A stretch of DNA of 26,642 nt from a virus (IMGVR_UViG_3300030372_004520:1-26642); one strand, 5' to 3'. Numbered from the stretch's first letter, positions 603-19,546 are shown. The notes: generated from the letters alone by a model not told the origin. Numbers and translations are program-made.

Positions 603-830
603 ATGGCAAAAGTCAATGTATCCGCTTGGAATCAAAATAATGGTATTTTAGCTGAAAAAGAAGCTGAAACACCAGGGGAACTATTAACTGAATTCGGTCT
701 AAATCCTACAGAGGTAGCAGTAGAAGTTACAGACTCACAAGGGGAAGAACGAAGATACACCGCTGGTTTATCACTAAATGACGGCGATACAGTTATTATA
801 ATGAAATCTAAGAACAAATCAGGCAGATAA
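603..830 (+). CDS. Ubiquitin-like (beta-grasp, ThiS/MoaD-like) protein with C-terminal Gly masked by one Arg
   Basis: 75 aa with ThiS/MoaD-like pattern (T-x-x-ELL-x-x-FGL...VAVEV...LNDGDTVII) and tail KNKSGR. RBS AGGGAG 591-596. Lies directly upstream of E2, JAB and E1 genes. Confidence 0.8.
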   Translation: MAKVNVSAWNQNNGILAEKEAETPGELLTEFGLNPTEVAVEVTDSQGEERRYTAGLSLNDGDTVIIMKSKNKSGR

Positions 831-952: not shown

Positions 953-2443
953 ATGAAAGAATATTTATTAAATCTAATAGAACAATTGTGGGAAGCAGGC
1001 TATTTAGCAGAAGAAGACTATAATACTGCTAAAAATCAAGTAGATATACATGCTAATGTATTAGAAAAAAAGTATTCAATCGAAACAGGGATGACATATA
1101 GACAAATGCCTAATCCAGATAATAATGATGAAATAGAGCCTGTCTTATGTGAGCAACCTCTTGTAAAGTTTTCAAATGTTATATGCAAATTTAGGCCTCA
1201 CTTACATATGGGTGACTATTATTTGGACATAATCATAACATCTACAGATATTAAATATAAATACAGATATAAAGTAGACTATGATGAAGAAAATATAAGA
1301 TGGGACTATGCTAAACATCCTCATATGAGTAATGGACAACCTTGTCTTGGAACATTTGGAGCACAGCTTAATACTGCTATTAAAAGTTGTAACTTTTTAG
1401 GATTCTTTAATAATATGGCTAAATGGTTACAAAACTATACTGGTAGAGATACATATGTAGCTGGTTCTAGATTTAAAAAGAAACAAATAGTATATGCTTT
1501 AAATAACTATAGACATGTTATAGATACATTTGGTAATGGTGAAGCAGATGATTATGAAGGAAATCAAAATCTAGACATTACAGGAATATTAAAAGATGGT
1601 ACAAGATGGGGTTATCCTCAAGATATTCCAGCTTTAGGCACGATTCCTATACAAGGACAAGAACTATCTTTATTTAAAACATTATTAAATGTACACGATC
1701 AAAATGGTGGTCACAATGTAGCATTTAGTAGTAGTAATTTTTCCGATTTTACATATATGGGAACAAATAATGTATGGATAGATAGTGCTACTCATAATTA
1801 TGCTACATATAGAGATTATGATAATGATCCTGGTTGGAATATTAATAAAATAATGGGATACATATTCTTAGTTAACAAATTTGGTGATTATAATTTAATA
1901 CAATCTATTGAATTTGTAAGAATATTCTTATTAACACTATATTCTCAATACACAGGAAGCTTAACACCAGAAGCAATAAAACAGCTTAAAAGTATGTCTG
2001 ATAAATTGAACCAAGTTAGCAGCTATAATAATAATTATAGAGTAAACAATAGATACAGTGTTCAATTAAGTGAAGATATACAAAAGATAGCTCTTGATGC
2101 TAAGAAAACAATAGAATCTACAGCTGGTAGTAGCTCAAGTGAGAGATCATTTATGGGATCATTACTATTTGCAGGTGAGAAAATAGGTAATTTTATTACT
2201 TTAATATCTAAAGGTATACCACATAAAGCAAAAGCTAGTGCATATCTTACAAAGCTAGATATAATCACTGAAGGTAAAATAGAAGAATGTATAGATAGTT
2301 ATAATCAATTTGAGACCTTTATTTATAGAAAGGCTCTTGAGAAACTTAAAAAGGATGAAAGGAGGTTCATGCGTGAGCTCAACAAATCAAATAAAGTTAA
2401 CCATTTCACAGAGGATAATGGACAAGGTTCGTTATTTTCTTAA
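953..2443 (+). CDS. Prokaryotic E2-like (Ubl-conjugating) protein with a long C-terminal extension
   Basis: HPHMSNGQPCLG (Cys131, nt 1343-1345) matches the E2 HP[NH]-x(n)-CL active-site signature and is followed by amphipathic helices (FLGFFNNMAKWLQNY). RBS GAGG. Operon context supports the call. Confidence 0.72.
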   Translation: MKEYLLNLIEQLWEAGYLAEEDYNTAKNQVDIHANVLEKKYSIETGMTYRQMPNPDNNDEIEPVLCEQPLVKFSNVICKFRPHLHMGDYYLDIIITSTDIKYKYRYKVDYDEENIRWDYAKHPHMSNGQPCLGTFGAQLNTAIKSCNFLGFFNNMAKWLQNYTGRDTYVAGSRFKKKQIVYALNNYRHVIDTFGNGEADDYEGNQNLDITGILKDGTRWGYPQDIPALGTIPIQGQELSLFKTLLNVHDQNGGHNVAFSSSNFSDFTYMGTNNVWIDSATHNYATYRDYDNDPGWNINKIMGYIFLVNKFGDYNLIQSIEFVRIFLLTLYSQYTGSLTPEAIKQLKSMSDKLNQVSSYNNNYRVNNRYSVQLSEDIQKIALDAKKTIESTAGSSSSERSFMGSLLFAGEKIGNFITLISKGIPHKAKASAYLTKLDIITEGKIEECIDSYNQFETFIYRKALEKLKKDERRFMRELNKSNKVNHFTEDNGQGSLFS

Positions 2444-3269
2444 AAAATACCCGAATAGAGAATGGTCAGGCCCTGCTTGGTATTCTCAGAAGTTTAATGA
2501 AACTGGGTTTCCAACTGAAGTTAAATTAGAATATTTCCATGTACTAAATCTTGGATCGGCATCAGAAACAGATTGGGATGGAGCTGACTTAGCTAAAAGA
2601 TTTACAAAGTTAAGAAAGTTATATCCAAAAATAGGTACTAAATGGGTGCAAGGAAATGTTCATTCTCATCATACTATGGGAGCATTCTTTAGTGGAACAG
2701 ATAAAGAACAATTAGACGAAGGTGTAAACGAAGAGGGATTTTACTATTCATTAGTAGTATCAACTAAGCCAGGTAAAGAAATAGCATTTGGTTTTAGTTA
2801 TATGGACCAATTTAAAAATATACACAGAGAATATGTCAATAAATTTGATGTATCTGAGTATGTTAAGAAATGTCCTGACTGGGAAGAAGAAGTAAAATTC
2901 ATCGAGAAAGAATCTAAGAAAGCATCAGTAATAACAATAGGCAAAAGTAGAACCAAAAGTTATATTCATGGTGGACAAGGAACATTGTTTTATGAGACAC
3001 ATGATCCAACTGTAGGCCTTTTGCATGGTGAGCATGAAGAAGATTCTTATGAAGAATATTTAGACTTTGCTAGCTATAATGGATGGAGTAGAATGAATAT
3101 TCTAAACGAAGAAACCTTTGAAGCTGTTAAAGAGATAGAAGAAAAGTATAATAATACTAATATGAACGAAAGAAAGTTCAAGAAACTATTAAAAAAAGCA
3201 GGTTCTACACCAGAAAGGATGGCAACGCATTATGAGTACTCGATATTTGCGCAACCAAGATCTAATTGA
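2373..3269 (+). CDS. JAB/MPN+ zinc metallopeptidase (Ubl-processing / deconjugating)
   Basis: E(WSG)...HSHHTMGAFFSGTD (2661-2702) fits E-xn-HxH-x7-S-x2-D. Start revised from 2310 to GTG 2373, 7 nt after AGGAGG (2360-2365). Confidence 0.88.
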   Translation: MSSTNQIKLTISQRIMDKVRYFLKKYPNREWSGPAWYSQKFNETGFPTEVKLEYFHVLNLGSASETDWDGADLAKRFTKLRKLYPKIGTKWVQGNVHSHHTMGAFFSGTDKEQLDEGVNEEGFYYSLVVSTKPGKEIAFGFSYMDQFKNIHREYVNKFDVSEYVKKCPDWEEEVKFIEKESKKASVITIGKSRTKSYIHGGQGTLFYETHDPTVGLLHGEHEEDSYEEYLDFASYNGWSRMNILNEETFEAVKEIEEKYNNTNMNERKFKKLLKKAGSTPERMATHYEYSIFAQPRSN

Positions 3270-4096: not shown

Positions 4097-4969
4097 TTGT
4101 TAGAAATCAATAAAATAGAAAACAAGTGGACCGATGAATTACCCGCTGGAATAACATGGTATTTTATAGGTCAACCAAAAAGTGGTAAAACCACACAAGC
4201 AGCATCATGGAGTAAAAAAGGTTCTGAAGGTGTATTAATTATAGATACAGATTTAGGAGCTGACTTTGTTGATGGTGCTAATGTAATTACTTGCTCATCT
4301 CTAAATGCTCCAACAAGAGTAAAAGAAAAAGATGGCATAAAAATCCTTAAAAATGGAAAAGAAGTTTTAGAAATAATTCCACCAATAGAGCGTGGATTTT
4401 ATTTTAGAAGTGGTCCAAACAGAGGAGAACCAATGCCTGCTTATTCTTTAGCAGAGATATTGCAAGACTTACAAAAAAACTGGGATAAATATCCCTATGA
4501 CACCATAGTAATCGATACTATTGATCAAGTTAACTCTTGGATAGAAGAAGTAGTTAAAGCTGACCAAGGTATAGAGAATATGGGAGATGGTAGCTGGGGC
4601 GCAGACTGGGCTGCAGCTAAAAAGAAAAATGCTGATATTGTTAAAAGATTACAAGATTTCCTTAAGAAAGTAGGAGGAAATTTAGTTTTATGTAGTCATG
4701 CAAAACAAACAGCAATGACAGATGATAAAGTTCAGCTGTCACCAAATCTACCTTCAGGTTTAGGTAGAGTGTTATGTGCCAAAGCAGATGTAATAGGATA
4801 TGCAACCATAGATAAAGAAAATGGAGACTATCTTATATCATTCCAGGGATATGACGAAAGAATGGTAGGTTCAAGACTAAAACCATTAGCACAAAAACTA
4901 TTACCATTCAGTTACACTAGTGTTATAAACGAAATAAAATCCTATAAAGAGGAGAAGGGAGCTAAATAA
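4097..4969 (+). CDS. Sak4-like / AAA_24 P-loop ATPase (probable single-strand annealing recombinase)
   Basis: Walker A GQPKSGKT, IIDTDLG, Walker B IVIDTID, GADW, LCSHAK, ADVIGY. TTG start with AAGGAG RBS. Followed by an SSB-like gene, as is typical for Sak4 modules. Confidence 0.8.
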   Translation: MLEINKIENKWTDELPAGITWYFIGQPKSGKTTQAASWSKKGSEGVLIIDTDLGADFVDGANVITCSSLNAPTRVKEKDGIKILKNGKEVLEIIPPIERGFYFRSGPNRGEPMPAYSLAEILQDLQKNWDKYPYDTIVIDTIDQVNSWIEEVVKADQGIENMGDGSWGADWAAAKKKNADIVKRLQDFLKKVGGNLVLCSHAKQTAMTDDKVQLSPNLPSGLGRVLCAKADVIGYATIDKENGDYLISFQGYDERMVGSRLKPLAQKLLPFSYTSVINEIKSYKEEKGAK

Positions 4970-5560
4970 ATGGCTTTAATGAGATCTCAAGTTAAAAGCG
5001 GTGGCGGAGATTGGACTGGTATTAAAACTGGAACAATAACAGCCGTAAGAGACGATTCAAGTAAGTTTCAATGGGCAGATGTATATCTAGCAATTGATTT
5101 TAAAGTTGAAGGTTCAGATTATCCAAGAACTATGAAAATAGCAGGATCTTGGGAAAAGAATCCAGACGGAACAATTCAAGATTGTACATTGCTTAAAAGA
5201 ATAACATTCTTCTTTGACGCTATCGGAGAGATGGGCGGAGTTAACCAACATGGTGAATGGGTTAATCACAAAGAAGAAAAAATAGATGATATTTGTAGTT
5301 ACATTATGAATAACTACAAAGATATGGCTTTAACTATCTTTATTTATAAAGAACAAGGTAAAGACGGTAAAGCTTACACAAGAGTTCATAATAAAGTACT
5401 TGCTGCTAAAAACGGGAGCGAGCAAGAACTTGAAAGTTACATTGCATTCTTAAGAAAGAAAGGTTATCTTAAGGAAGCCAGAGAAGAGAATGGTACTGCA
5501 AATAATGTAGGAGCAGACACTTCTTTTAATGTGGATGAACTAGATGTCGCAAATCTATAA
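4970..5560 (+). CDS. Putative phage single-stranded DNA-binding protein
   Basis: Position between Sak4-like ATPase and primase-helicase, beta-rich N-terminus and acidic tail (FNVDELDVANL). Call rests on context, not on a strong motif. Confidence 0.55.
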   Translation: MALMRSQVKSGGGDWTGIKTGTITAVRDDSSKFQWADVYLAIDFKVEGSDYPRTMKIAGSWEKNPDGTIQDCTLLKRITFFFDAIGEMGGVNQHGEWVNHKEEKIDDICSYIMNNYKDMALTIFIYKEQGKDGKAYTRVHNKVLAAKNGSEQELESYIAFLRKKGYLKEAREENGTANNVGADTSFNVDELDVANL

Positions 5561-7328
5561 TTATATAGAAGTTGCTATTGAGAGCCCTCGGAGACGGGGG
5601 CATCTCATTCCTAAAAATGAACTGTCAAAACACTTAAACAAAGAAGTGCCATTATATAGATCTATGTATCTTTATAGTATGGATGCAGTGGATTACGCAG
5701 ATTCAAAAGGAAATAGCTTGCGAGGCTATTATGGTGTTAGAGATATAGATAATATCTTGATTGATATAGATAAAGAAAAAAATACTGACCAACATACATT
5801 AAGTAAATGTCAAAGTATTTTATATCAATTAACTCAAGATTTAGAATTAAATGAAAATAATTTTAGAGTCTATTTCTCTGGAAGTGGTTATCATATAATG
5901 ATACCTAATAGTGTTTTTAAATTTCCAGCATCAGAAAAACTACCTTTTCAATTAAAAGAAACAATGATGAAAATGTTTCCTAGTATAGACTCAATGGTCT
6001 ATATGAGAACAGGAATATATAGAGTTGCTCATTCTTTAAATAAAAAATCAGGATTATACAAAATTCCTTTATCTTTTAAAGAAGCGATGACTAATACACC
6101 TGAAGAGATTCACGAACTAGCAAAAACACCTAGATATGAATTTCCTTATGAAGAGGTAACTGGTGATGGAGAATTAGAAGAATATATTGTTAAAGAAGTT
6201 AATATGTCAAGGCCAATGGGTAAAATATCCGAGCCCAATAAAGTTGCAACATGTGTACAAACAATGTTCAATATTGGACCACAAGAAGGATCTAGACATA
6301 AAACTTTATTAAGAATAGTATCTCACTTCAGAAGACACGGAGTACCATCAAGCGCAGCAAAAGCCGCATTAAAAGAGTGGAACAATGGAAGCTTAAATGA
6401 AGCAGAAATATGTGATCAGGTCGAATACTCTTATAATAAAGGATACAAATATGGATGCAATGATGAACTTATGCTTCAATATTGTAGTCCTAAATGTATT
6501 TATTATAAAAGAAAAGATTACTTAGTAGATGTTTTATCATCAACAGATTTACAAAAAGAGTTAAATGAAAGACTTACAGAAGACTTTACTGGCAGGTCTT
6601 ACAATCTAAGCAAAGCTTTTGGTATAGATAGAGAATGTATATTCTATCCAGGAGATTTAGTAACTATATTTGGTCCAACAGGTTCAAGCAAAACCACGTT
6701 AGCACATAATATAGCCTTAGGTTATGATCATTTAAATGATGTAATCAATCCAAAGCTCCAAATTCCTACTCTTTACCTTTCTTTAGAGTTAGCTGGTTGG
6801 TATATGCATAGAAGGTCTTTACAAATAGCAGGGAAGTTCACCAAAGATGTAGTTAGTAAAGACTATAATAAAATATATTCATCAGTATCAGACTTAGTAG
6901 GGCATATTAATGTTCAAACAGTCGCTCCTACACTAGAGCAAATACAAACTAAAATAACAGAGTTGCAACCAGCCATGGTTATAGTCGATTACATAGACCT
7001 AGTAGACACTCCACCTCATATAAGAGGAGAGTATGAACAGGTAAAATATATTTCACACGGACTATCTAATATGGCAGTTAATAACGATATAATTATTTTA
7101 CAAGTATCTCAAGTTAGTAGAGATTATAGTAGAAATGAAGTGCTTGATTTATATGCAGGTAAAGGTTCTGGGGCAATTGAAAACGCTTCAAGAAAAGTTA
7201 TAGGTATAAATGGACAAGCAAATTCTAAAGAAAAAGAAGTTAAATTGTTTAAAAATACTGATGGAGAGTTGTTCGATGTAAAATTAGAATGGACTCCATC
7301 ATTTAGGCTAAGGAGGGTAAATGAGTAA
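5544..7328 (+). CDS. AEP primase-polymerase fused to SF4 (DnaB-like) helicase
   Basis: AEP motifs ILIDID, YFSGSGYH, YRVAHSLNKKSGLYKIP. PriCT-like EGSRH...LKEWN and Cys cluster (YGC..C..C). Helicase GPTGSSKT, LSLE, VIVDYID, VSQVSR, KGSGAIE. Confidence 0.88.
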   Translation: MSQIYNYIEVAIESPRRRGHLIPKNELSKHLNKEVPLYRSMYLYSMDAVDYADSKGNSLRGYYGVRDIDNILIDIDKEKNTDQHTLSKCQSILYQLTQDLELNENNFRVYFSGSGYHIMIPNSVFKFPASEKLPFQLKETMMKMFPSIDSMVYMRTGIYRVAHSLNKKSGLYKIPLSFKEAMTNTPEEIHELAKTPRYEFPYEEVTGDGELEEYIVKEVNMSRPMGKISEPNKVATCVQTMFNIGPQEGSRHKTLLRIVSHFRRHGVPSSAAKAALKEWNNGSLNEAEICDQVEYSYNKGYKYGCNDELMLQYCSPKCIYYKRKDYLVDVLSSTDLQKELNERLTEDFTGRSYNLSKAFGIDRECIFYPGDLVTIFGPTGSSKTTLAHNIALGYDHLNDVINPKLQIPTLYLSLELAGWYMHRRSLQIAGKFTKDVVSKDYNKIYSSVSDLVGHINVQTVAPTLEQIQTKITELQPAMVIVDYIDLVDTPPHIRGEYEQVKYISHGLSNMAVNNDIIILQVSQVSRDYSRNEVLDLYAGKGSGAIENASRKVIGINGQANSKEKEVKLFKNTDGELFDVKLEWTPSFRLRRVNE

Positions 7329-7881
7329 GTTAACATCCAGAGATTTAGTTGCTAATTTAATAGAATTAGAACTAGATAGAAAATTCTTAGAGCAGACCCA
7401 AGGTGATGACCCTGGGTTTGCTGAAGAAGTAAAACCTATTGACGAAGCTATCGTTAAAATTAAAAAAGAAATGACTAATAAAGTATCGGGGCTAGATCAT
7501 ATGATTGTAGAAATGAATAAAAGAAAAGACCTTATAGATACAGAAATTGGTAGTTTAATGAAAGAAGTTAGTAGGTTAAGAAGAAGAAAAGATGCTATCA
7601 AAAGAACAGAAGATTATTTTAATAAAAATCTTCTACCAATGATAATAGAAACTGCAGGTAATGATGGCGTTTTAGAAACAAAAACCACAAGATACAAAAT
7701 GTATCAAACCTGGGGACCAATCGAAGTTATAGATGAAAATGATGTCCCTGATAACTACAAAAGATACAAAGTAGAAATTGACAAAAAAGAAGCACGTAAA
7801 GCAGCTATTGAAGCAGCTGAAAGTGGTCAAGGAATACGTGGGTTTAAAATAGAAAAAGTAAAAAGAATCAGGAGGTCTTAA
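7321..7881 (+). CDS. Siphovirus Gp157-like (Gam-like) coiled-coil protein
   Basis: Long coiled coil followed by IEVIDENDVPDNYKRYKVEIDKKEAR..GQGIRGFKI, which resembles the Gp157 C-terminal pattern. Confidence 0.7.
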   Translation: MSKLTSRDLVANLIELELDRKFLEQTQGDDPGFAEEVKPIDEAIVKIKKEMTNKVSGLDHMIVEMNKRKDLIDTEIGSLMKEVSRLRRRKDAIKRTEDYFNKNLLPMIIETAGNDGVLETKTTRYKMYQTWGPIEVIDENDVPDNYKRYKVEIDKKEARKAAIEAAESGQGIRGFKIEKVKRIRRS

Positions 7882-8050: not shown

Positions 8051-8533
8051 ATGGCTACAAAACAAATAAAAAGAAGAGGTAGAGTATCAGTTTGGGAACA
8101 AAAGTTTGAAAAGGTTCTCAAAAAACATCATGGACATTTTGCTAAAAAAATATTCCATCGATTGATGAAGAAATCATCTACTCTTAAATCTTCACTTAAA
8201 AAAAGGAGTAAAGAATATGAGGTTAAATTTGACATCTCTTTGGAAGAAATCAGAAGCCTATTTCTCAAGAGCTATGGAAAGCAATGTAGGTATTGCTCTG
8301 ATGTACTACTGGTATATAACATTGTATGTGACCATATGTATCCTCTCAGTTTGGGTGGTGATTCAACTCCTAACAACCTTGCAATAATTTGCAAAAGATG
8401 TAACACTCGTAAAGGACACTTAACAGATAAAGAATATAAATCATTATTAAAATTCTTAGGAACAAAAAGTGAAAATATGAAAAGTTATGTTTTAAGAAAA
8501 CTAGCGAAAGGAGATAATTTCGGTGAGAGTTAA
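8051..8533 (+). CDS. HNH endonuclease
   Basis: CRYC...CDHMYPLSLGG..TPNNLAIICKRCNTRKG, with a basic N-terminus and AGGAG RBS. Confidence 0.9.
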   Translation: MATKQIKRRGRVSVWEQKFEKVLKKHHGHFAKKIFHRLMKKSSTLKSSLKKRSKEYEVKFDISLEEIRSLFLKSYGKQCRYCSDVLLVYNIVCDHMYPLSLGGDSTPNNLAIICKRCNTRKGHLTDKEYKSLLKFLGTKSENMKSYVLRKLAKGDNFGES

Positions 8534-8864
8534 TATGGTAAACATAGTAAAAGGATTTATTACTGCAAAGCCAGAGTTAGCTAACTGTGATATTTCCTTG
8601 ATATATGCTATATGGCATTATCAATTAAAAAACAATAAACCTTCTGTGAATCTAGACAAAATAACTGCTAAAGAGCTATTTAAACATTGGTTAAATGGTA
8701 ATATTTCTTCAGTATTTAATATATCGAGATCCAGAAGAAAATGTCAACAACACTATCCAGAAACAAGGGGGAATGACTATGTCAAAAGACAAGAGCACCA
8801 ATCGATTATACAATCAGATGTCAAAAGAGAAGCTAATCGTGCAATTGGAAAATCTACAACGTGA
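8523..8864 (+). CDS. Hypothetical protein, possibly DNA-binding
   Basis: 113-aa ORF with AAGGAG RBS. Contains ISRSRRKCQQHYPETRG. No family assigned. Confidence 0.65.
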   Translation: MRVNMVNIVKGFITAKPELANCDISLIYAIWHYQLKNNKPSVNLDKITAKELFKHWLNGNISSVFNISRSRRKCQQHYPETRGNDYVKRQEHQSIIQSDVKREANRAIGKSTT

Positions 8865-9018
8865 ACTCAAATCAATGAGCGCTAGATCAGTTAGATTTTA
8901 TCAAGCATATGCAGTGCTCCTAGATTTTTGGGAAAGTGCAATTGAAGTTGATGATTACATACCTGAAAAGGTACAAAAAGAAGTACAGGGTAAACTTAAC
9001 CGTTTATTCTTAGATTAA
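8779..9018 (+). CDS. Hypothetical coiled-coil protein
   Basis: Start revised from 8695 to ATG 8779 (GGGGG upstream; 8773 is an alternative) to reduce overlap. Confidence 0.55.
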   Translation: MSKDKSTNRLYNQMSKEKLIVQLENLQRELKSMSARSVRFYQAYAVLLDFWESAIEVDDYIPEKVQKEVQGKLNRLFLD

Positions 9019-9033
9019 CCGAGGACGATACTT

Positions 9034-9064
9034 AGGGGCTTTAGACAGAGTGCTTAGCCCCTTT
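9034..9064 (+). terminator. Possible intergenic hairpin / weak terminator
   Basis: AGGGGCT(9034-9040) pairs with AGCCCCT(9056-9062), 15-nt loop, short T run. Confidence 0.35.
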
Positions 9065-9094
9065 GTATCAAATATAATAAAAAAAGGAGTCAGA

Positions 9095-9433
9095 ATGGGA
9101 TATGTTAAGCTTGGGAAAACAAACCTATACGCTAACAAAGATGCTACTGAAGCAAACAGACAACCTCACTTTAGAGGGGACATCGAGATAACAGAGGACA
9201 TACCAAAAGGAGCAAAAATAGGCCTTGCGGGATGGCTCAACGAGAAGGGAAACAACAGGAGTTTATTTTTTGCAGTAAGCGCAAAAGAAGAAGACCTGCA
9301 ACCTAAACTTGATCTTGGAATAGCAGAATGTGATTGGGAAAATATGCCTCAAGTTATAGAACTTGTAAGAGAAGGTATGGACCCACACGAAGCAGTAGCA
9401 AAAGTAAAGAAAGACTCTGAATTGCCGTTTTAA
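9095..9433 (+). CDS. DUF736-like small ssDNA-binding-type protein with SSB-like C-terminal tail
   Basis: NLYANK..NRQPHFRGDIEI..GLAGWLNE..SLFFAVS pattern, ending DSELPF. Start revised to ATG 9095 (AAGGAG 9084-9089). Confidence 0.55.
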   Translation: MGYVKLGKTNLYANKDATEANRQPHFRGDIEITEDIPKGAKIGLAGWLNEKGNNRSLFFAVSAKEEDLQPKLDLGIAECDWENMPQVIELVREGMDPHEAVAKVKKDSELPF

Positions 9434-10291: not shown

Positions 10292-10331
10292 ATTAGACGA
10301 AGAGGGGATTTATTCCCCTTTTTCGTTTAAT
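10292..10331. terminator. Bidirectional terminator hairpin between the convergent blocks
   Basis: ATTAGACGAAGAGGGGA-TTTAT-TCCCCTTTTTCGTTTAAT gives a ~17-bp stem with G-U pairs and one bulge, overlapping the RNAP stop codon. Confidence 0.75.
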
Positions 10332-13300
10332 GTAAGTCTCTTAGAAAATCCTTGAGATATTCTATTTCCTTCTTGAAGTGATTCAACTTTAATAAAATCT
10401 TTATTCTTTAAAGCTATATCCATAGCCTGTTTCAAACTATATTCTTTTAATTTATCACCATCTAATCTTATAGTAGGAAATACTATCCAACCATGTTCAG
10501 GATGCTTTTCAACTGCTGTTCTAACACTTTCATTTTTTGATGTTCTTAAAGGATTATCAACAGCACGTTGCATCCAAGGATATTGTTTAGCTAATTTTTT
10601 AGTTTCTCTTTTACCTAAAGGATCAATAGCCCCAATTCTTCTACCTTTAATTTCTTCAGATAATTTAAGATAAGGTATTCCAGTAGCTTTTTCTATAGTC
10701 ATTGCTGGATTTTCTAAAACACCTTTAACATCACGTGCCATCCTACCAAATGGGAACATAGTCCACATATGATAGTTTGATAATCTAGAGTAATCATCAT
10801 TAACAAAAGCATTAAATGTGGCAGGGACCAACCGCAACCCTGGCGGAGTAACCATTTGGAGCGGAGCTAATGCGGTCGGCCACTGACCAAAAAAGGCTCT
10901 ATCTCGTTCTTTTTCGTCACCAAAAACCCAGTCCGCTGTATCTTGGAACCAGTTCCATGGAGCAGGCATTGCACTTTCAAACAATGAATATGCGAACACA
11001 TTCCCAAGGCCGAAAACGAACATGTCGGTTAGATATTGCCTTTTAAATCTTTCAAATTCTGGAGTACCTCTTCTAAATCCATATAATTTTGCTTGTTTAT
11101 AAGTATCATTTCTAAATCTAACACTATTCCAAGCCCAAGTTTGGAAACGAGTCATAACTTTACCTAAAGCAGAACTAGAGAATGCTGGTCTATAAGGTGC
11201 TGAATATAAGAATTGTGTTGCTTTAACACCTTTTTTAGCCATTTCAATCAACATAGGGTGATCTAAAGGCATATTAGCATGTCCAAACTTTTCTCTAGCT
11301 TGTAAATAATGTGCAGCAAAAGCGTCTCTTCTCAACATTCTTTCAGGTTCTCTCATGAACCAAGCTGCTTTTTGAAATGCTGTTTCAGTAATTTTATGTT
11401 TCTTAGCTATACTTAATAATGTTTCATCTTTTACAGCTGGATCTTTTTCTAATACTTTTTTAGCATCATCTAAAAATAATTTCCATTTACCACCTTTAAA
11501 ATTAGGATTAAGTCCAGCCTCATGAATTATAAAGTCAGGAACAACACCATGTTTAATAACCCATCTATCTATATCTTTTTTAGACTCCCATTTAGATGCT
11601 TCACCTGCTATATTTGTTCTCCAGAACTCTACATTTCTACCATCTTTCCAATTACGCCATCCAGCAGATTGAATTGTATGTATAGTACCACCAAATATAT
11701 TGGCGACAGCAGATTTAGGGTGAGCAAGAAGTGTAGCCATTTGATACTTAGCTTCTAGATTAGACCAATGTCTTAAGTCTTGTTCAGTTAAGCCTAATTC
11801 TTCTGGAAGTCTAGTATCTTCTTTGAATCCTAATGATTTTCTAATTCTTTTAACCATTTTTAATACGTGATTATCTGCAAACCAAGAATAAGGAGTACCT
11901 TTAACTTTCATTAATTCAGCTCCAGGACCTTCCATCCATTCTTGAGGTATTTTAGAAGGAAAACCAAGAGCTCTAGTAGTATAATCCTGAACATAATTAT
12001 TCCAAGCAAATGCTTGACCTTCATCATTCCATTTAGCAGACTCTTTAGTAAAGTCAGTTATAGCACGTTTAGACATTATTTGTCCAATCTGCCTATAAAA
12101 TGTATCAATAAGATTTTTTTGATATATATCCCAATTACCTATATCAGTAGACCAACCAGGTAGATCAGAAGAACGTGACATCATATTACCTGCTATAGGG
12201 TCTTGTTCTAACCATCTAAAATGATCACCTTTTCTTTTTTCAGCAATTTCCCTTAAAGCGCCTAACTCTATTTGACTATCTGTTATATCAGAAATTATCC
12301 AGTCACCAGTCATGTTTCTGTATTTATTTATTTGCTTAGCAACTTCTCTTTCTTTTGTTTGACGATCCATAACATTGTCTGGTATCTTTTTGATTCTTTC
12401 AATTTGTTCTATAACCGCCTGCTTAGCAATAGATTTATTTTCAATAAACTGAGGATGATAATCAGTAGGTTTGAAGTAATTAGTATAATCCATGCCTTGC
12501 TTTTGATACATCTCAATTAAATCATCATACATTTCTCTTTTTGTTGGATCTTTAGTTAAAGCTTTTTCAGCCATAAATTTATCCAAAGTAATAGAACGTT
12601 GTACTTTTCTTAAATTATCTAAACCAAGACCTAAATCTAAAACAGTACCTTCTTTCATAGCTGTTTCAATATATTTAGTAAAAGCTTTTGCATCAATTTT
12701 TGGTAAATCTTTATTATTACCCCAATAAAGTTTTTTCTTAGAACCTTTTGCTCTGACTATAAATTGATCAAGAGGATCTGCCATTTCAGTATTTTTAACA
12801 TAACTTTGAGTAGGTTCATCCCAATACCAGTTTTTACCACGTATCCAAGAAAATGTTGTTTTAGCTCTTTCAGTTAACACATCATTAATAGTATCTTTTA
12901 TTTGTCTTCCAGTTCTAGTTATAGTAGAAGGTTTAGAAGCATCTTCTGCATATATTTTAACAGAAAATTTTTCTTCTTTTATTTTGTCCCAATTAGCAGC
13001 TTCTTTAGCTTCAGCTAATTTGTCTTGGTAATTCTTTAATTTATGATGATATTCTCCAGAATTTTTTTCTATATTTTTACTTTTAAAAGCTCTTAATGAT
13101 CGCTCTGCATTTGTTACACCAGCTATATGGTGACCAATACCATCAGGAAGAGACTCATAACCAGTAACTTCTCTTAATTCTTTTTCTAACGCTAGTTTTT
13201 CATCTTGATTTAGTTGCACAGAAAGAGCCTCTGTTTTACCTAAATAATATTGTATATTTTCAATAATTTGTGTAGGACTACCAACTTTACCAGCTACCCA

Positions 13301-16300
13301 TTCACCTTTATAGTTTTGAAAATGACCCATTTCTTCAAAGATTTTAAAGTCTTTGACCATCATCTCATCTGAAACAGATTTAGGGAATAACATCCAATGT
13401 CTCTTTCCTAGTTTTAATATATTATCTTTGGTTAAGCCTTTAGGAGTTGTAAATATATTGCCACTTCTCATATCTCTAAAAAATCTATTCATTACACGAT
13501 AATCTTCAACAGTGAAAGCATCAAAGTTCTTTTGTCTTAACTTTCTAGCTAATAAGTTTAAATTATCTACACTTTTCATACTATTATGATAATATTTAAC
13601 GTGACCTATGAGCTCATCTACCATTTCTCTCTCAGCATTAGATAGCGCATAACCACTTTCTTTAGCTTCTTTAGACCTTTGTCTAGCTTCTAATATACCA
13701 GAAACATCATCTTCTAATGGATCATCAGGAGCAATTTCTCTTAATTCTTTAGTTTTAGTTTGTTTTTCAACTGCTTGTTTAGTATCAAAATCTTTTAAAT
13801 TACCCGTAGTAACTTCATCAAATTCTTTAGCATAAGTTCTAAAAAAGTCACCAATTGCAGCATCATTTACCCAAGCACTATTTAATCCTGTTTTATAAAA
13901 ATAAGTACCAGAATTAGCTCTTTGCATTTCCCTTATTTGTGGATATATAAGCTTCTTAAGTCTTCCATCTAAATTTTTAAAAGCCTCTATTTCAGTTAAT
14001 CTTCTACCTTTAAAGTAAGTAGATAACATCATAGTGTCGAATAAATAAGATTCTTCGGGACTAAGTTTAGCACCTTTCTTTTTAGTGCCTTTAATTTTAT
14101 TATTTAATTTAAATTCTGCTATTCTTTCATTAATCTTTTGCTGCCTATTAAATGGCATAAATTCTTGATCTTTTTGAAATACTTTTCTAATCTGTTGATT
14201 TAGTTTTACAGCTTCATTTTTATCTTTAGCTATTCTATCTACCTCAGTCTGTAAGAATCTTTCTAAAGCTTTGCCTTTCATATACATTTCTTGATCTTTA
14301 ATATTTTGAACAGCTTTAGCCATTTTGTATATAAAGTCATCTTTTGTTCCAGACTTTCTAGCCATATCAATACCTTTTAGTAATTGTATAGCAGATACTC
14401 TATCCATAGCATTAGATTGAGCAAAGTCAGTACCTTGTCTATATGCGTCTGTAACACTTCTTAAACGATAAGAAGGAGCCTTTGATGCAGCTTCATCTAG
14501 CTCTTGAGTGCTTTTCCAGAAATCTTTATAATCTTGATGTCTAGGAAATGATCTGGCTAAATGTTCTCTTAATGCAGATTTAGTACCCCACCTAGCACCT
14601 TTTAAATCTCTAAAAAATTCAATATATTCATTTGTAAATGATTCATCAGCAAGTCTTATTCTTTCATCAGCTTCCCATAACCTTTTATCCATTACTTTAT
14701 ATATTATAGGATTGTCTCTAGAAACAAAAGAAGGTCTACCTAATAGGCCTCCAGGAGCTTTATAATTATCATTTAATGCTTTAAGTCTAACTGCTATATC
14801 AGAATTAAATGTATTATATCTATTTTCAAGAGCCGTTCTATCAACAGTTCTCATTATATCATCAGCATAATCAAGAGGCTGTATTACTTCTGCCATCCTA
14901 GGTAACATTGATGATCTCTGTTTTTCATTTAACCATAATACACCACTTCCCATATTTTTTATTTCATGAGATTGCCAACGCCTACCTTCTGTATGATTTT
15001 TACCAAAGTAAGCACTATTTAAGTCACCAAATATTTTAAAGACACCTTGTTGCCTAACATTCCAATAAGGATTAAAGCTTGACTTTGCAGCTTCATTACC
15101 ATTCCAATCTACTTTAAACAAAGAATTGAAAGCATTATTATAAAAATGTTCTACACCTGTTAAAGATATTTCATCTAAAGGGTCTGAACCAAAAGCTATC
15201 TGAGCTCTACTTAATTCTCTAGAATTTTTAAGTTCTGATGCAGAAGTTCTAGGTATAACATATACCCATTTAGTCTTTCCATTATGATCAAAAGCAATAC
15301 CATGCCTACGATCTGGTTTATAATTAGCTTTTTCTGCTTTACTTTTCTTATGAAACAAAGACTTAGATATTGTACGACCAGTCTTTTTGTTAATATATCT
15401 CTCAATGTTATTATTTGAAGGAAGTAATGCGTTGTAAGCAGCATTTAGAGTTTGTTTAGAGACTATAGCTGGACCCAATTGCTTACGACCAGCATCAGCT
15501 TCTTGTGATATATTAAGTCTAGAACCAGGAGTGAATCTACCTACTATTGAAGTTTTTCTTGCTAATTCAGCTGCGTCACCTTCAGTTGTTGTAGTAAATA
15601 AGTCCTGCCAAGTAACACCTTTTTTATTTTTTATTAAATCTAATATAAATTTATCATGTGGGTTAGAAGGGTCTAAAGTTTCTTTAAGTATTTTAATACC
15701 AGCTGCATTTATTTTAGCCTCTTTATTATCTTTAACAACATCACCTTCCATAAATTCTTTTTTATTCAAATGGTACATATCTCTAAATTCTTTTTTCATT
15801 CCGAACATTATAGAGACCTTATCACCATCAAGATCAGCACCACCTAATGCTTTCATAGCTCTAGGATGTAAAACTGCTCCATGACCATCAACTCCAGTAA
15901 ACCCAGCGAATACCAATCTATGTGCACCAGATATAGAATCCATAGGTACACGAAGAGAAATAGTTTTGAAAAACTCTTTAACTGCTGGTAATTTTCTGTA
16001 TTCAGGAGTATCTAGCTCTTCTAAAGTGATGTATTTTTTAGTATGAGTTATACCTACATCTTTAACATCGAACCTAACTTTCTTATATCTTTCATCTAAA
16101 AATATAAGTTCATCAGGATTTTCAATGCCGTATTCTTTTTTCATTTTTTTAGTTAATTTATCAGCAGGTAAATCCATTATTGCCAAATTATCTTGCTTAG
16201 CTAGCCACGGGTCTAACCCTCTCATTCTAGCTGACATCGATGCATTCCATTTTGGTCTAACAACTTTACTAACTACGAAATTACGCATAGCAGACTGAAC

Positions 16301-19300
16301 ATAATTCCTAACATCTTTATGAAGAAACACAGTTCTATCTGGATATATTTCAATCATCCTACTTAAAGAAGAATTTATATGTTTAGCATCTGCAACTGCT
16401 GCAGTGTAATCTACACTATTTATCATTCCAGATTCAAATTCAGTGGTTAGATTACTTAAATTAGACCTTAATATTTTTTGGTATAACTTAGTAACAAAAC
16501 CAAAATGGTTACTTTTAAGGCCGTCTATAACCTCACTTAACCCTACTTTATCTAAGTTATCAATAAATCTTTGCTGTTCAATATCAGATAACTGACCAAC
16601 TGGTTTTTCTAAAGCAATTTTAAATTGTTCATTAAATAAAGGATCACCTTTATATCTATCTGTAACAACTTCATCAAAGAATTTATTAATAGTTTCAGGA
16701 GCTATTCTTGAACTAGCATGAGGATGAAGGTTAGACATTGCCTGTTTAGCTATAAGCTGAGGCTCTAACATATGATCAGATTGCTTTTCTGATAAAGAAC
16801 CTTTAATACCTTCTAAATTAAGCTCTAAATCTCCTTTATTCTTTTTAATCTGTAAAGCATTCATAGCCAATTTATTAGCATGATTCTCTCTTTCAGCACC
16901 TTTAGGAGTGTTTTGATTTTCTTTTGTAAAATGAGCTCTTTCGTGAAGTATGTAAAAATCAACTAAATCTTTAGGAGTCTCTATAACTCCATCAGGAAGA
17001 GGATCGACTCCTTTCATTTTAGGGTTTAACCAGGCCTTTTTATTAAAATCTTGTTTAATTTTATCTTCATCTATAAGAATTTGTTTATTTTTATAATCAG
17101 TTCTAGCACCAACCATTCTTCCACCATATGCAGAAGTAATTCCTTTAACTTTCTTTACTTTAATATCAGGCAAACCTGTTCCAAATGTTGCTTTACCATC
17201 TTTATCAACTGTTAAGGCCCCAACTGCTCTAGAACCATATTCTTTAGCGCCTGATTCTGGCATTAAAAAGTGTATACCTTCTTTTCTCATCCATGCGCTA
17301 GCTTCTGGACTTGCCTTATGAAACATAAATTTACCAAGAAGTGCTCCATGTGTTGGATCTGAATCTACCAAAAATGATTTATTTTGACCAGATGAAGGTA
17401 ACCCATAGGCTTCATTTAAAGCATCAACAAAACTAGCTTCAGCAAGAACCGCACCATCTGTAGATTCCATATATAATGTAGCTCTATCGTTTATTGTTAA
17501 GTTTTTAGTATCTGTATCTCTAAATATTCTAAATTTAGCTTTATCACCTTTAAATTTAGTAGGGCCTGCATATTGTTTTTTAAAGAATTTAGTATCAAGA
17601 GAGAAACCATCTGTTAACCATATTTGGTTTCTTTTATTAAAGCCTTTTGCATCTTTTATTTGAGTATTCCTCATTAACCAATCTGCAAAACCTTTTTTAC
17701 CTAATACTGACTCATTTATACCATACATTACTTTATCCCATTTGATATTAGATATAAATGCTCTATCGAAATAGAGGTCTTTTGCTAGCTTATCAAGCTT
17801 AAGATTGAATTTTGAATTAAATTCTTGTTTCATTTCAAGATAATGCTTTTTAGCATTAGGATCAAGTTTTGATAATATATTAAGGTATCTATCTTTTTCT
17901 CTTGTTACACCAACTTTATCAAGCTTAACTACATCTGGATGGTATTTAAAAAAGTACATCTTAGCAGAGTCACCTTTACCACCATTATAGTAATAACCTT
18001 TAGAGTGTAAATCACCAAGAACATCTTTCATTAATTCTCTTCCAAATGATCTATTACCACCCATAAGCCTTTTATTTCTATAATTACTAACACCATAGAA
18101 GCTTTTAACGTCGTTAATCTTATCAATTGGGACAGTTTTCCAATATTTAGAGTCCTTACCCCCAGAATGAATAATTTCGTCTAAAATGAGCATAGCTCTA
18201 TTTGCTGGATTATATCCTTCACCAGTCACTCTTTCATAAGCAAGCTCAAATGCTTTAGGAGAATCACCAACAGATTTAATTTCTCCAGCTTGATTTTTTT
18301 CATTCATTTCTCTTAATTCAACTACTTGTGGTTGAGTATATTGTTTTGAATCTTTATCATATACTACACTTACATCAATATAAGGAGCTGGCCTTTGCAT
18401 TGCTCTTCTTATCAATAATTGTCTTAATTCTTTTTGACCTTCTGGAGAGAAATCTGCCTGTTCAGGGAAAGCTTTATTTACATCTTTAATATATTTCTCA
18501 TATGTATCTAAGCTTGTATGATTATTTAATACATCTATAATCTTATCTGTAGATTCTTTTTGAAACTTGGATAATTCTGCAGTAGTAATATTATCTGCTG
18601 CTTTAAAATACTTTTTAACAATAGATCTAGCCTGTTTATCGATTTCAACTTGTGATGATTCAAAGTCTGTATCATCTACTTTTGTTGTTTCATTATCTTT
18701 TTCGGTATTATCTGTTCTTTTAGCCATCTCTATTTCAGCTTTTTCCATACCAGATGCAATTTTACCTAGTTTATTCACAAGATATTTAGCAGTTTCTGGA
18801 GCAGAATCTCTTAATTCATTGATCATATCCTCTGATACTACTATTTTACGCTCATCAGGTACTTTTTCTAAAACTTCTCTAATTTGCTCTCTATTTTGAT
18901 TTAGATACTCATCAGTCATTCCTTTTAAAGGAAGTTTCGCTATATTTCCTTCAATTGCTTTATCAGTATTGAATCCTTTAACGTGATCTGGTAGTAAAAT
19001 TACATCATCTTGATTAGCCAGGTCATCAGCATTTACCTTTTTAACCTCTACAAATCTTTCATGTTTTTTAGAGAAGTCTGCTAATTGAGCTTGTTTTACT
19101 ATTCCAGTTTCATTGCTAATAACTATATCCGTGGCTATAGCATCTTTCACTCCTTCAATAGTTTCTCCAGCCATAACTGCTTGTGCACCATAATTTCCGT
19201 GTCTTAATGCTATATCTTTATAAACTGCATCTTGAACATCTTTTGGTAAGGTGTCCCATCCTTCAATAACTTCAGGATTAAATACTGTTGTATCCCATTG

Positions 19301-19546
19301 ATAGGGTTTACCTGATGGATCTAATCTACCTAAATCTTTAGCTTTTTTGGTAGACGCTTTTTCTACTTTTTGAATGTGTCTTAATTTCATTGACTCACCA
19401 GCAGTTGTCTCATGAGCGCCAAAGAATGCACCTAGAAGATACGAATATATTATCTCAGGAGTTGTTTCCCCTCTCATTGTAGAGGATAATCCTTCATAGA
19501 GAGATGAAGCTCCAGCTCTTATTAATTGATCTTCCTTTTGTGTCAT
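10310..19546 (-). CDS. Giant two-barrel (double-psi beta-barrel) RNA polymerase, probably virion-packaged
   Basis: LRVPMDS...VLHPRAMKALGGADLDGDK (DLDGD at 15821-15835, aa 1238-1242). First-barrel-like motifs STDGAV, LLGKFMF, MPESGAK. Inserted HExxH domain. C-terminal helical region (TQFLYS..RP..GKVMTRFQTW) resembles ejected internal virion proteins. Located in the virion gene block. Confidence 0.85.
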   Translation of the reverse strand: MTQKEDQLIRAGASSLYEGLSSTMRGETTPEIIYSYLLGAFFGAHETTAGESMKLRHIQKVEKASTKKAKDLGRLDPSGKPYQWDTTVFNPEVIEGWDTLPKDVQDAVYKDIALRHGNYGAQAVMAGETIEGVKDAIATDIVISNETGIVKQAQLADFSKKHERFVEVKKVNADDLANQDDVILLPDHVKGFNTDKAIEGNIAKLPLKGMTDEYLNQNREQIREVLEKVPDERKIVVSEDMINELRDSAPETAKYLVNKLGKIASGMEKAEIEMAKRTDNTEKDNETTKVDDTDFESSQVEIDKQARSIVKKYFKAADNITTAELSKFQKESTDKIIDVLNNHTSLDTYEKYIKDVNKAFPEQADFSPEGQKELRQLLIRRAMQRPAPYIDVSVVYDKDSKQYTQPQVVELREMNEKNQAGEIKSVGDSPKAFELAYERVTGEGYNPANRAMLILDEIIHSGGKDSKYWKTVPIDKINDVKSFYGVSNYRNKRLMGGNRSFGRELMKDVLGDLHSKGYYYNGGKGDSAKMYFFKYHPDVVKLDKVGVTREKDRYLNILSKLDPNAKKHYLEMKQEFNSKFNLKLDKLAKDLYFDRAFISNIKWDKVMYGINESVLGKKGFADWLMRNTQIKDAKGFNKRNQIWLTDGFSLDTKFFKKQYAGPTKFKGDKAKFRIFRDTDTKNLTINDRATLYMESTDGAVLAEASFVDALNEAYGLPSSGQNKSFLVDSDPTHGALLGKFMFHKASPEASAWMRKEGIHFLMPESGAKEYGSRAVGALTVDKDGKATFGTGLPDIKVKKVKGITSAYGGRMVGARTDYKNKQILIDEDKIKQDFNKKAWLNPKMKGVDPLPDGVIETPKDLVDFYILHERAHFTKENQNTPKGAERENHANKLAMNALQIKKNKGDLELNLEGIKGSLSEKQSDHMLEPQLIAKQAMSNLHPHASSRIAPETINKFFDEVVTDRYKGDPLFNEQFKIALEKPVGQLSDIEQQRFIDNLDKVGLSEVIDGLKSNHFGFVTKLYQKILRSNLSNLTTEFESGMINSVDYTAAVADAKHINSSLSRMIEIYPDRTVFLHKDVRNYVQSAMRNFVVSKVVRPKWNASMSARMRGLDPWLAKQDNLAIMDLPADKLTKKMKKEYGIENPDELIFLDERYKKVRFDVKDVGITHTKKYITLEELDTPEYRKLPAVKEFFKTISLRVPMDSISGAHRLVFAGFTGVDGHGAVLHPRAMKALGGADLDGDKVSIMFGMKKEFRDMYHLNKKEFMEGDVVKDNKEAKINAAGIKILKETLDPSNPHDKFILDLIKNKKGVTWQDLFTTTTEGDAAELARKTSIVGRFTPGSRLNISQEADAGRKQLGPAIVSKQTLNAAYNALLPSNNNIERYINKKTGRTISKSLFHKKSKAEKANYKPDRRHGIAFDHNGKTKWVYVIPRTSASELKNSRELSRAQIAFGSDPLDEISLTGVEHFYNNAFNSLFKVDWNGNEAAKSSFNPYWNVRQQGVFKIFGDLNSAYFGKNHTEGRRWQSHEIKNMGSGVLWLNEKQRSSMLPRMAEVIQPLDYADDIMRTVDRTALENRYNTFNSDIAVRLKALNDNYKAPGGLLGRPSFVSRDNPIIYKVMDKRLWEADERIRLADESFTNEYIEFFRDLKGARWGTKSALREHLARSFPRHQDYKDFWKSTQELDEAASKAPSYRLRSVTDAYRQGTDFAQSNAMDRVSAIQLLKGIDMARKSGTKDDFIYKMAKAVQNIKDQEMYMKGKALERFLQTEVDRIAKDKNEAVKLNQQIRKVFQKDQEFMPFNRQQKINERIAEFKLNNKIKGTKKKGAKLSPEESYLFDTMMLSTYFKGRRLTEIEAFKNLDGRLKKLIYPQIREMQRANSGTYFYKTGLNSAWVNDAAIGDFFRTYAKEFDEVTTGNLKDFDTKQAVEKQTKTKELREIAPDDPLEDDVSGILEARQRSKEAKESGYALSNAEREMVDELIGHVKYYHNSMKSVDNLNLLARKLRQKNFDAFTVEDYRVMNRFFRDMRSGNIFTTPKGLTKDNILKLGKRHWMLFPKSVSDEMMVKDFKIFEEMGHFQNYKGEWVAGKVGSPTQIIENIQYYLGKTEALSVQLNQDEKLALEKELREVTGYESLPDGIGHHIAGVTNAERSLRAFKSKNIEKNSGEYHHKLKNYQDKLAEAKEAANWDKIKEEKFSVKIYAEDASKPSTITRTGRQIKDTINDVLTERAKTTFSWIRGKNWYWDEPTQSYVKNTEMADPLDQFIVRAKGSKKKLYWGNNKDLPKIDAKAFTKYIETAMKEGTVLDLGLGLDNLRKVQRSITLDKFMAEKALTKDPTKREMYDDLIEMYQKQGMDYTNYFKPTDYHPQFIENKSIAKQAVIEQIERIKKIPDNVMDRQTKEREVAKQINKYRNMTGDWIISDITDSQIELGALREIAEKRKGDHFRWLEQDPIAGNMMSRSSDLPGWSTDIGNWDIYQKNLIDTFYRQIGQIMSKRAITDFTKESAKWNDEGQAFAWNNYVQDYTTRALGFPSKIPQEWMEGPGAELMKVKGTPYSWFADNHVLKMVKRIRKSLGFKEDTRLPEELGLTEQDLRHWSNLEAKYQMATLLAHPKSAVANIFGGTIHTIQSAGWRNWKDGRNVEFWRTNIAGEASKWESKKDIDRWVIKHGVVPDFIIHEAGLNPNFKGGKWKLFLDDAKKVLEKDPAVKDETLLSIAKKHKITETAFQKAAWFMREPERMLRRDAFAAHYLQAREKFGHANMPLDHPMLIEMAKKGVKATQFLYSAPYRPAFSSSALGKVMTRFQTWAWNSVRFRNDTYKQAKLYGFRRGTPEFERFKRQYLTDMFVFGLGNVFAYSLFESAMPAPWNWFQDTADWVFGDEKERDRAFFGQWPTALAPLQMVTPPGLRLVPATFNAFVNDDYSRLSNYHMWTMFPFGRMARDVKGVLENPAMTIEKATGIPYLKLSEEIKGRRIGAIDPLGKRETKKLAKQYPWMQRAVDNPLRTSKNESVRTAVEKHPEHGWIVFPTIRLDGDKLKEYSLKQAMDIALKNKDFIKVESLQEGNRISQGFSKRLTLNEKGE

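Follow-up and report, generated by a model that had tools for sequence, protein, structure and literature searches.

The window, the whole 26,642-nucleotide stretch of viral DNA that was analyzed (IMGVR_UViG_3300030372_004520:1-26642), carries a four-gene phage operon encoding an Ubl, an E2-like protein, a JAB peptidase and a ThiF-type E1 (Table 1). The E2-like protein and the JAB share a near-identical peptide, and the comparison of homologous loci indicates that both copies are under selection. The E2 QGSLF and the JAB QGTLF probably dock in the peptide-binding pocket of host DnaN, which would have the writer and the eraser of the tag both working on the clamp. We consider it less likely than not that the tag is attached to the clamp itself. 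The complete scenario, in which an E3-free Ubl cycle of marine and crAss-like phages tags the beta clamp, the pockets being shared and the motif of the writer overprinted on the first helix of the eraser, is offered tentatively, as less probable than not.

Table 1. Features of the cassette and of the adjacent region in the window
Feature	Coordinates	Strand	Evidence
Ubl (beta-grasp) precursor, 75 aa, ends Ser-Gly-Arg	603..830	+	homologue alignment, profile match
E2-like protein, 496 aa	953..2443	+	His-Pro-His...Cys131 site, AlphaFold2 topology
Shine-Dalgarno-like AAGGAGG for JAB, within the E2 coding sequence	2359..2365	+	sequence reading
JAB/JAMM peptidase, 298 aa	2373..3269	+	Prok-JAB match, invariant residues, model
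QGSLF, clamp-binding-like, followed by one residue and the E2 stop; its bases also encode JAB	2423..2437	+	
QGTLF, clamp-binding-like, linker between JAB domain and small helical domain	2976..2990	+	
ThiF-family E1, 226 aa	3232..3912	+	Pfam ThiF E 1.8e-15
Sak4-like ATPase, 196-aa ORF, primase(-polymerase)/DnaB helicase fusion, Gp157/Gam-like protein	4097..7881	+	after cassette

The predicted conjugation cassette and its genomic setting

The Ubl profile matches the ThiS-like structure 2cu3 (E 1.7e-4) and, weakly, SAMP2, and Pfam ThiS is matched by 2 of the 31 Ubl members. Ser73 and Gly74 are invariant in all 31 aligned homologues, and the last residue would be trimmed, exposing Gly74. The AlphaFold2 topology and the alignment of the E2-like protein outline a beta meander, a His-Pro-His...Cys131 site, a helical C-terminal part and a disordered tail; H122, P123, H124, C131 and G133 are invariant in 47/47 homologues at 11-36% identity. 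No Pfam, PHROG or NCBIfam family matched this protein, its profile found among solved structures only an unrelated protein as the best match (E 0.012), a whole-chain fold search with VIA-align returned helical bundles only, with residues 328-466 dominating, and Prok-E2_D gave no more than a hint (0.89, for 11% of one cluster). The predicted topology and the invariant residues are compatible with the beta meander, the His, the Cys and the flanking helices of the E2/UBC fold, and this architecture agrees with the description of bacterial E2s in PMC1779556. From the alignment and the model, we infer that the protein is an E2.

The JAB gene overlaps the E2 gene by 71 bases and likely starts at GTG 2373, where close homologues have Met. 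Its product matches Prok-JAB with an E value of 1.1e-4, below the cut-off, and H82, S83, H84 (the HSH encoded at 2661-2669), S92 and D95 are invariant in all 120 homologues; the JAB profile matched no solved structure. The E1 profile matches eukaryotic E1 enzymes (~1e-10), with Cys168 and the other invariant columns kept in 46/46 sequences.

The cassette is the head of a set of replication and recombination genes, including the primase(-polymerase)/DnaB helicase fusion at 5544-7328 and a 196-aa ORF that, by its position, is presumably SSB-like. The relatives of the window are phages of ~52 kb, and many of them come from Tara and comparable collections; the window represents about half a genome. 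Among the 20 matches listed, the terminase of a relative is at most 27.5% identical to those of isolates. A JAB homologue occurs in a Rhodospirillaceae MAG and a distant locus in a MAG of Flavobacteriales, and either placement may reflect misbinning.

Several other genes in and around this region merit a mention. The 3078-aa ORF at 10310-19546 (minus strand) contains a DLDGD motif similar to the catalytic one of two-barrel RNA polymerases; the protein matches only a PLxRFG domain, it has no PDB match, and its counterparts, of 2,977-3,141 aa, lie among the virion genes of relatives. This protein is likely an injected RNA polymerase. The 127-aa ORF at 9050-9433 (plus strand) has no family match and ends in an acidic ELPF tail resembling an SSB C-terminus; the counterpart in a relative ends in DTPF. 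Two ORFs at 8523-8864 and 8695-9018 (plus strand) share 170 bases in different reading frames, and the second probably has its real start further downstream. In one relative, a spore photoproduct lyase-like radical SAM gene (L194:7677-8537, minus strand; Pfam SPL E 2.9e-23) lies just upstream of the cassette.

Conservation of the two peptides

Translation of 2420-2443 yields GQGSLFS-stop and that of 2970-2996 yields GGQGTLFYE, so that the two peptides lie exactly where an earlier note on this sequence had placed them. That note had also remarked that two unrelated proteins of one operon share nearly the same peptide. Across the 23 ORFs of the window (8,419 aa), QG[ST]LF occurs twice, in adjacent genes, compared to 0.009 expected, and the more permissive QxxLF 3 times, compared to 1.07 expected, the third occurrence being in a short antisense ORF (374-616). 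In each of the 4 complete relatives scanned, both E2 and JAB contain QxxLF, and these two proteins account for 8 of the 13 QxxLF matches in the 4 proteomes. In the AlphaFold2 models, E2 residues 482-496 and JAB residues 176-206 (P0011 numbering) have low confidence and are probably disordered, and QGTLF falls, as had been proposed, in the linker past the catalytic domain, ahead of the small helical domain.

Comparison of homologues, which had been suggested as a check, showed that both motifs are kept far beyond chance. Among the 120 JAB homologues, the first motif column contains Gln in 104 of the 115 filled rows, the fourth contains Leu in 78/115, and the fifth contains Phe, Trp or Tyr in 104/114 (Trp in 28/114); G, A and T are the commonest residues at position 2, and the flanking columns are variable. 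The strict QxxLF pattern, taken over from the earlier note, is present in 55 of 119 JAB linkers versus 0.6 in shuffles, and a broad pattern, fixed after the homologue data had been viewed, in 89/119 versus 10.6 expected. For a wider scan, the 150 best JAB representatives at 50% identity were taken, of which 13 were skipped as too short or devoid of HSH; QxxL[FW] or QxxLxF was detected in 24 of 78 close representatives (1.6 expected) and in 16 of the 59 that are distant (2.2 expected). The motifs among these representatives include QLSLF, QLTLF, QLELF, QLELPF and QHDMF. Judging from the alignments and the models, the JAB motif stands out as conserved within a linker predicted to be disordered, where gene overlap is not a confounding factor.

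The E2 tail has a second reading, missed by the earlier note: it is the first helix of the JAB gene translated in the -1 frame, over MDKVRYFLK. The tail reads Q[GA][ST]LFS in 9/9 homologues, seven of which are 32-36% identical, and the consensus across 47 homologues (11-36% identity) ends in QxxLF. For the analysis of the overlap, we assembled 169 loci and the window, removed the loci that lack the JAB WSG anchor (at least ten, among them L032, L125, L159 and L163-L169) and dereplicated the rest at 70% JAB identity, which left 59 loci, 57 with an upstream ORF and 55 with an overlap; the expected number of motifs was calculated with the JAB residues fixed and the codons drawn from family usage. 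A QxxLF or QxxLxF-type E2 tail is present in 44 of the 55 overlapping dereplicated loci versus 6.4 expected, and absent from the other 11, counts that, the loci being related, do not represent independent trials. With the JAB residues alone, the probability of the motif is at most 0.25 per locus (0.17 for the window).

Codon choice in the overlap carries additional information. The codon preceding Lys has C as its third base in 42/42 cases versus 96/354 elsewhere in JAB, a bias that mainly appears to show the avoidance of stops in the E2 frame rather than selection for Gln as such. The Arg before Tyr is encoded by CGT or CGC in 19 of 20 cases versus 1/17 elsewhere in JAB; CGT is used 11 times and CGC 8 times, both give Leu in the E2 frame, and the choice between them is synonymous in both frames. 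Conserved two-fold sites elsewhere in JAB are near background, and TAT for Tyr (42/52) is at the background level. At 60% dereplication, the C-ending codon is found in 24/24 cases and CGT/CGC in 8/9; at 50%, the respective counts are 9/9 and 3/4. The form of the E2 tail differs by clade (QG[ST]LF, QSELF, QVPLSF and QQQISF). Of the two loci without an overlap, L162 has an E2 ending in QFELQF and L076 has no motif on E2. The JAB helix predisposes the E2 frame, yet the E2 peptide appears to be selected in its own right, given the 44 tails observed versus 6.4 expected, the CGT/CGC bias, the clade-specific forms and the QFELQF tail that occurs without any overlap.

Both motifs are present in 38 of the 57 loci, only that of E2 in 9, only that of JAB in 9 and neither in 1, such that one enzyme alone has lost the motif in 18/57; a quick tree, with the pattern slightly widened, revealed no co-variation of the E2 and JAB motifs in these 57 loci. 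The variation across relatives follows the described pentamer/hexamer pattern, in line with the clamp-binding-like form originally attributed to both peptides.

Some related sequences are recorded here for completeness. In one clade (L027, L029, L031 and L110), the E2 tail D-L-P-x-F-stop, which resembles an SSB C-terminal tail, replaces the motif, while the JAB keeps the Gln motif. Another candidate within E2, QELSLF (aa 236-241), was discarded, being intact in 2/9 homologues and located within a predicted helix. A motif scan detected no QxxLF in the window E1; at L172:5875-8037, the E1 also contains an internal QQTLF, and a downstream SSB-like ORF ends in QSDMPF.

Related cassettes in crAss-like phages and in a second phage family

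Six crAss-like records (Steigviridae and Flavobacterium phage Fpv3; L188-L193) show the same gene order as the window cassette. In crAss001, the orthologues are gp76-gp79 (L190:3929-8339, gp79-gp76). The JAB homology has E values from 4e-14 to 2e-4, ThiF homology is detectable as well, and the E2s keep His...Cys-x-Gly. The JAB linker contains QxxLxF in 4 of the 6 records (QGELPF in crAss001 gp77), and the E2-tail motif is found in 0/6, although most of these E2s overlap JAB. The crAss-like Ubl differs from that of the window in that its Ser-Gly lies inside the chain, with a long extension after it, and the genomes span 88-103 kb compared to ~52 kb for the relatives of the window. The crAss-like cassette genes have been annotated merely as hypothetical, metalloprotease or thiamine biosynthesis, and the literature, most subscription papers aside, yielded no description of such an operon in crAss-like phages. 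Because crAss001 has an orthologous cassette with a JAB motif and grows on a cultured commensal host, the question raised by these peptides is testable now.

Distant JAB matches led to a second family, of larger phages (L163, L165, L183 and L207-L228; contigs up to 190 kb), with a related cassette. We counted 20 of the 22 inspected loci, omitting L223 and L228 as near-duplicates, with some duplicates remaining. In 19/20 of these loci, a putative clamp gene is located upstream of Ubl-E2-E1-JAB, directly in 11 and with one to three intervening ORFs in 8; the remaining locus is incomplete. The call of the putative clamp is based on phrog_947 (E 2e-4 to 5e-4) and on position, and a clamp loader of the phage's own, with strong matches, precedes the cassette.

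None of the 19 second-family E2s contains QxxLF. Their tail is [DENQ][VILF]W in 16/18 cases versus 0.1 expected, under a pattern chosen after viewing, and stands directly before the E1 gene. In the 2 phages compared, this tail did not match that of PolB; the E2-tail motif is not enriched in the second-family JABs (3/18 versus 1.5), and the tripeptide occurs near the start of, or within, the Ubl ORF in 6/17 cases and also in 9/16 large loader subunits. Profile comparisons of the window E2 family with the second-family E2 and with a Prok-E2_D protein were not significant, though the His...Cys-x-Gly sites aligned. The second family speaks for a connection of cassettes of this kind with clamps and is also compatible with E2 tails docking on E1. 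As a separate observation, in L230-L231 (G010), the PolB gene of this family is in pieces, split by ORFs with repeated zinc-ribbon-like units, which are probably homing endonucleases.

Probable docking on the host clamp and the alternatives

The beta-clamp-binding motif is a pentamer, QL[S/D]LF or generally QxxLF, or a hexamer, Q-phi-x-L-x-L, in which positions 1, 4 and 5 carry the binding, both lengths being known (available sections of PMC12309361 and 10.64898/2026.05.27.728225). Gln1, Leu4 and Phe5 are present in both QGSLF and QGTLF, and both peptides are exposed, flexible conserved islands in the alignments and the AlphaFold2 models. Instead of an aliphatic residue, position 2 is occupied by Gly in both peptides and mostly by G, A, S or T in relatives. 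According to the excerpts available from PMC12926913, PMC12867686 and 10.64898/2026.05.27.728225, the aliphatic residue is a preference rather than a requirement: Ala at this position weakens clamp binding (10.64898/2026.05.27.728225), non-consensus QHDLF and QPDLF are functional in MuC of phage Mu (PMC12867686) and QSSLF has been modelled on the clamp (PMC12926913). The peptides described here share with the clamp-binding motif the conserved Gln1, Leu4 and aromatic residue 5, the terminal or linker site, the predicted disorder and the hexamer variants; they differ in the small position 2, the frequent Trp5 in JAB and the hexamers ending in Phe, and in being carried by predicted conjugation enzymes, not DNA enzymes. 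The archaeal/eukaryotic PIP box (Q-x-x-hydrophobic-x-x-aromatic-aromatic) was considered and rejected for E2, which stops two codons after LF, and for JAB, which has no aromatic pair at positions 7-8.

Under the proposed mechanism, JAB would trim the Ubl after Ser-Gly, E1 would adenylate the Ubl and hold it on Cys168, and E2 would receive it on Cys131. Given that the operon encodes no E3, the choice of the target would fall to the E2 tail, which would dock on DnaN and direct the tag to the clamp or to a clamp-bound protein; by analogy with PCNA, the substrate would be located at or near the clamp. JAB would take the tag off from the same kind of pocket, of which there are two per clamp ring, and Gly at position 2 would make both motifs weak, exchangeable binders. 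The likely purpose would be to redirect the host replisome to phage DNA. PolA, PolB, Pol III alpha and DnaN were each found in 0/5 complete relatives, and PolB in 0/3 complete relatives in a separate scan. The earlier note had taken the lack of a replicative polymerase as a sign that the host replisome is used; PolA, PolB and Pol III are indeed missing from the window, but the argument is weaker than it was made to be because the JAB motif is present in 4 of the 6 cultured or assembled crAss-like records, from phages that encode a polymerase of their own, and because the motifs have been lost independently of each other.

The window operon apparently works like the type 6d/PRTRC, Bil or Bub conjugation operons but lacks features that define each of these. 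Type 6d, described by Iyer, Burroughs and Aravind in 2006, is a mobile, E3-free Ubl/E2/JAB/E1 operon (PMC1779556, in the text available). Its stand-alone Ubl with a terminal Gly, Cys-bearing E2, JAB and E1 in one operon without an E3 are all found here, whereas the extra alpha-helical and ParB-like genes are absent between or beside the four genes of the window, and the window E2 differs in its 496-aa length and in the His-Pro-His before Cys. The helical half of E2 could take the place of the alpha-helical partner. The window proteins scored well below the cut-offs of the NCBIfam PRTRC models TIGR03734-03742 (PRTRC_A 14.8 bits versus 101.8; PRTRC_ThiF 16.1 versus 144.75), and for the Ubl and E2 these models gave no match. 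In the available text of PMC1779556, the word 'clamp' appears as an author name only.

The Bil and Bub operons also encode Ubl, E2, JAB and E1 and no E3; JAB trims the precursor, and E2 is the proposed chooser of the target (10.1101/2024.11.21.623953, as far as its text was available). These are host defence or stress operons, whereas the window operon is phage-borne. Bil (BilABCD) has a multi-domain IAD-AAD-CYS E1, in contrast to the single 226-aa ThiF domain here, and acts against phages by conjugation to a tail protein, whereas the window system is encoded by a phage. Bub forms Ser/Tyr oxyesters and includes BubE, in contrast to the invariant Cys in the E1 and E2 described here, and DUF6527 (BubE) matched none of the 23 window ORFs. 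Phage Mu MuC/Mor is a precedent for a phage protein with non-consensus QxxLF motifs that act on the host clamp (PMC12867686). Unlike the proteins discussed here, it is a transcription activator with two motifs per chain and no covalent tagging. Eukaryotic PCNA is reversibly ubiquitylated and SUMOylated with the help of E3 ligases and PIP boxes. We use it as a working analogy, namely, reversible Ubl tagging centred on a sliding clamp; it differs in that there is no E3 here and that the E2 chain has just one residue beyond LF, which leaves no room for a PIP box.

In the literature, most subscription papers aside, we found neither a link of such an operon to a clamp nor a reported substrate for the simple mobile Ubl-E1-E2-JAB operons, described in 2006. 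Selected clamp-type motifs on the writer and the eraser name a target and the exact mutations to make. If the proposal is correct, viruses infecting bacteria would regulate the host replisome through covalent tagging at the clamp, a logic that, to our knowledge, has so far been described in eukaryotes and archaea.

The strongest competing explanation, which we nevertheless regard as unlikely, is internal docking, whereby E2 and JAB bind one pocket on their own E1 dimer or Ubl, with the shared peptide resembling clamp motifs by convergence. Each of the two enzymes has to meet the Ubl, the window E1 is just 226 aa long, Bub operons include JAB-E1 and E2-E1 fusions (10.1101/2024.11.21.623953, in the portion available), and JAB-E1 fusions are common in operons of the 2006 type (PMC1779556, likewise in part). 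Position 2 and Trp5 do deviate from the clamp consensus, but distant JABs reach the exact QLSLF and the hexamers, which a pocket on E1 would have no reason to favour, and the loss of the motif from only one of the enzymes in nearly a third of the loci (18/57) also speaks against a common internal site. The conserved E2 tail of the second family adjoins the E1 gene, as such docking might lead one to expect; the position of that cassette after a clamp would, however, be left unexplained.

Less probable still, in our estimate, is a different hub of the host or the phage, such as the helicase, a protease adaptor or an anti-phage protein, with the reversible tagging taking place away from the clamp. 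Short hydrophobic tails bind many proteins and could have such partners. The characterized bacterial Ubl systems function in phage defence, not replication (10.1101/2024.11.21.623953, available text). Against this explanation, the spacing of Gln, Leu and the aromatic residue and the coexistence of five- and six-residue forms are those of clamp motifs, as far as the sources available describe them, and the cassette heads replication and recombination genes.

The least credible explanation, that an RNA-level translational-coupling signal holds the overlap (55/57 loci) and the E2 motif is a mere by-product of the JAB K-x-x-Y-[FL]-L helix in the -1 frame, with only the JAB motif functional, would accommodate the modest probability of the motif given the JAB residues, the unenriched TAT and the motif-free E2 tails of crAss-like phages, most of which overlap JAB, but runs against the excess of observed over expected motifs, the use of both CGT and CGC while other conserved two-fold JAB sites stay near background, the change of the motif form between clades (QGSLF, QSELF, QVPLSF, QQQISF) and the retention of the motif without an overlap in L162.
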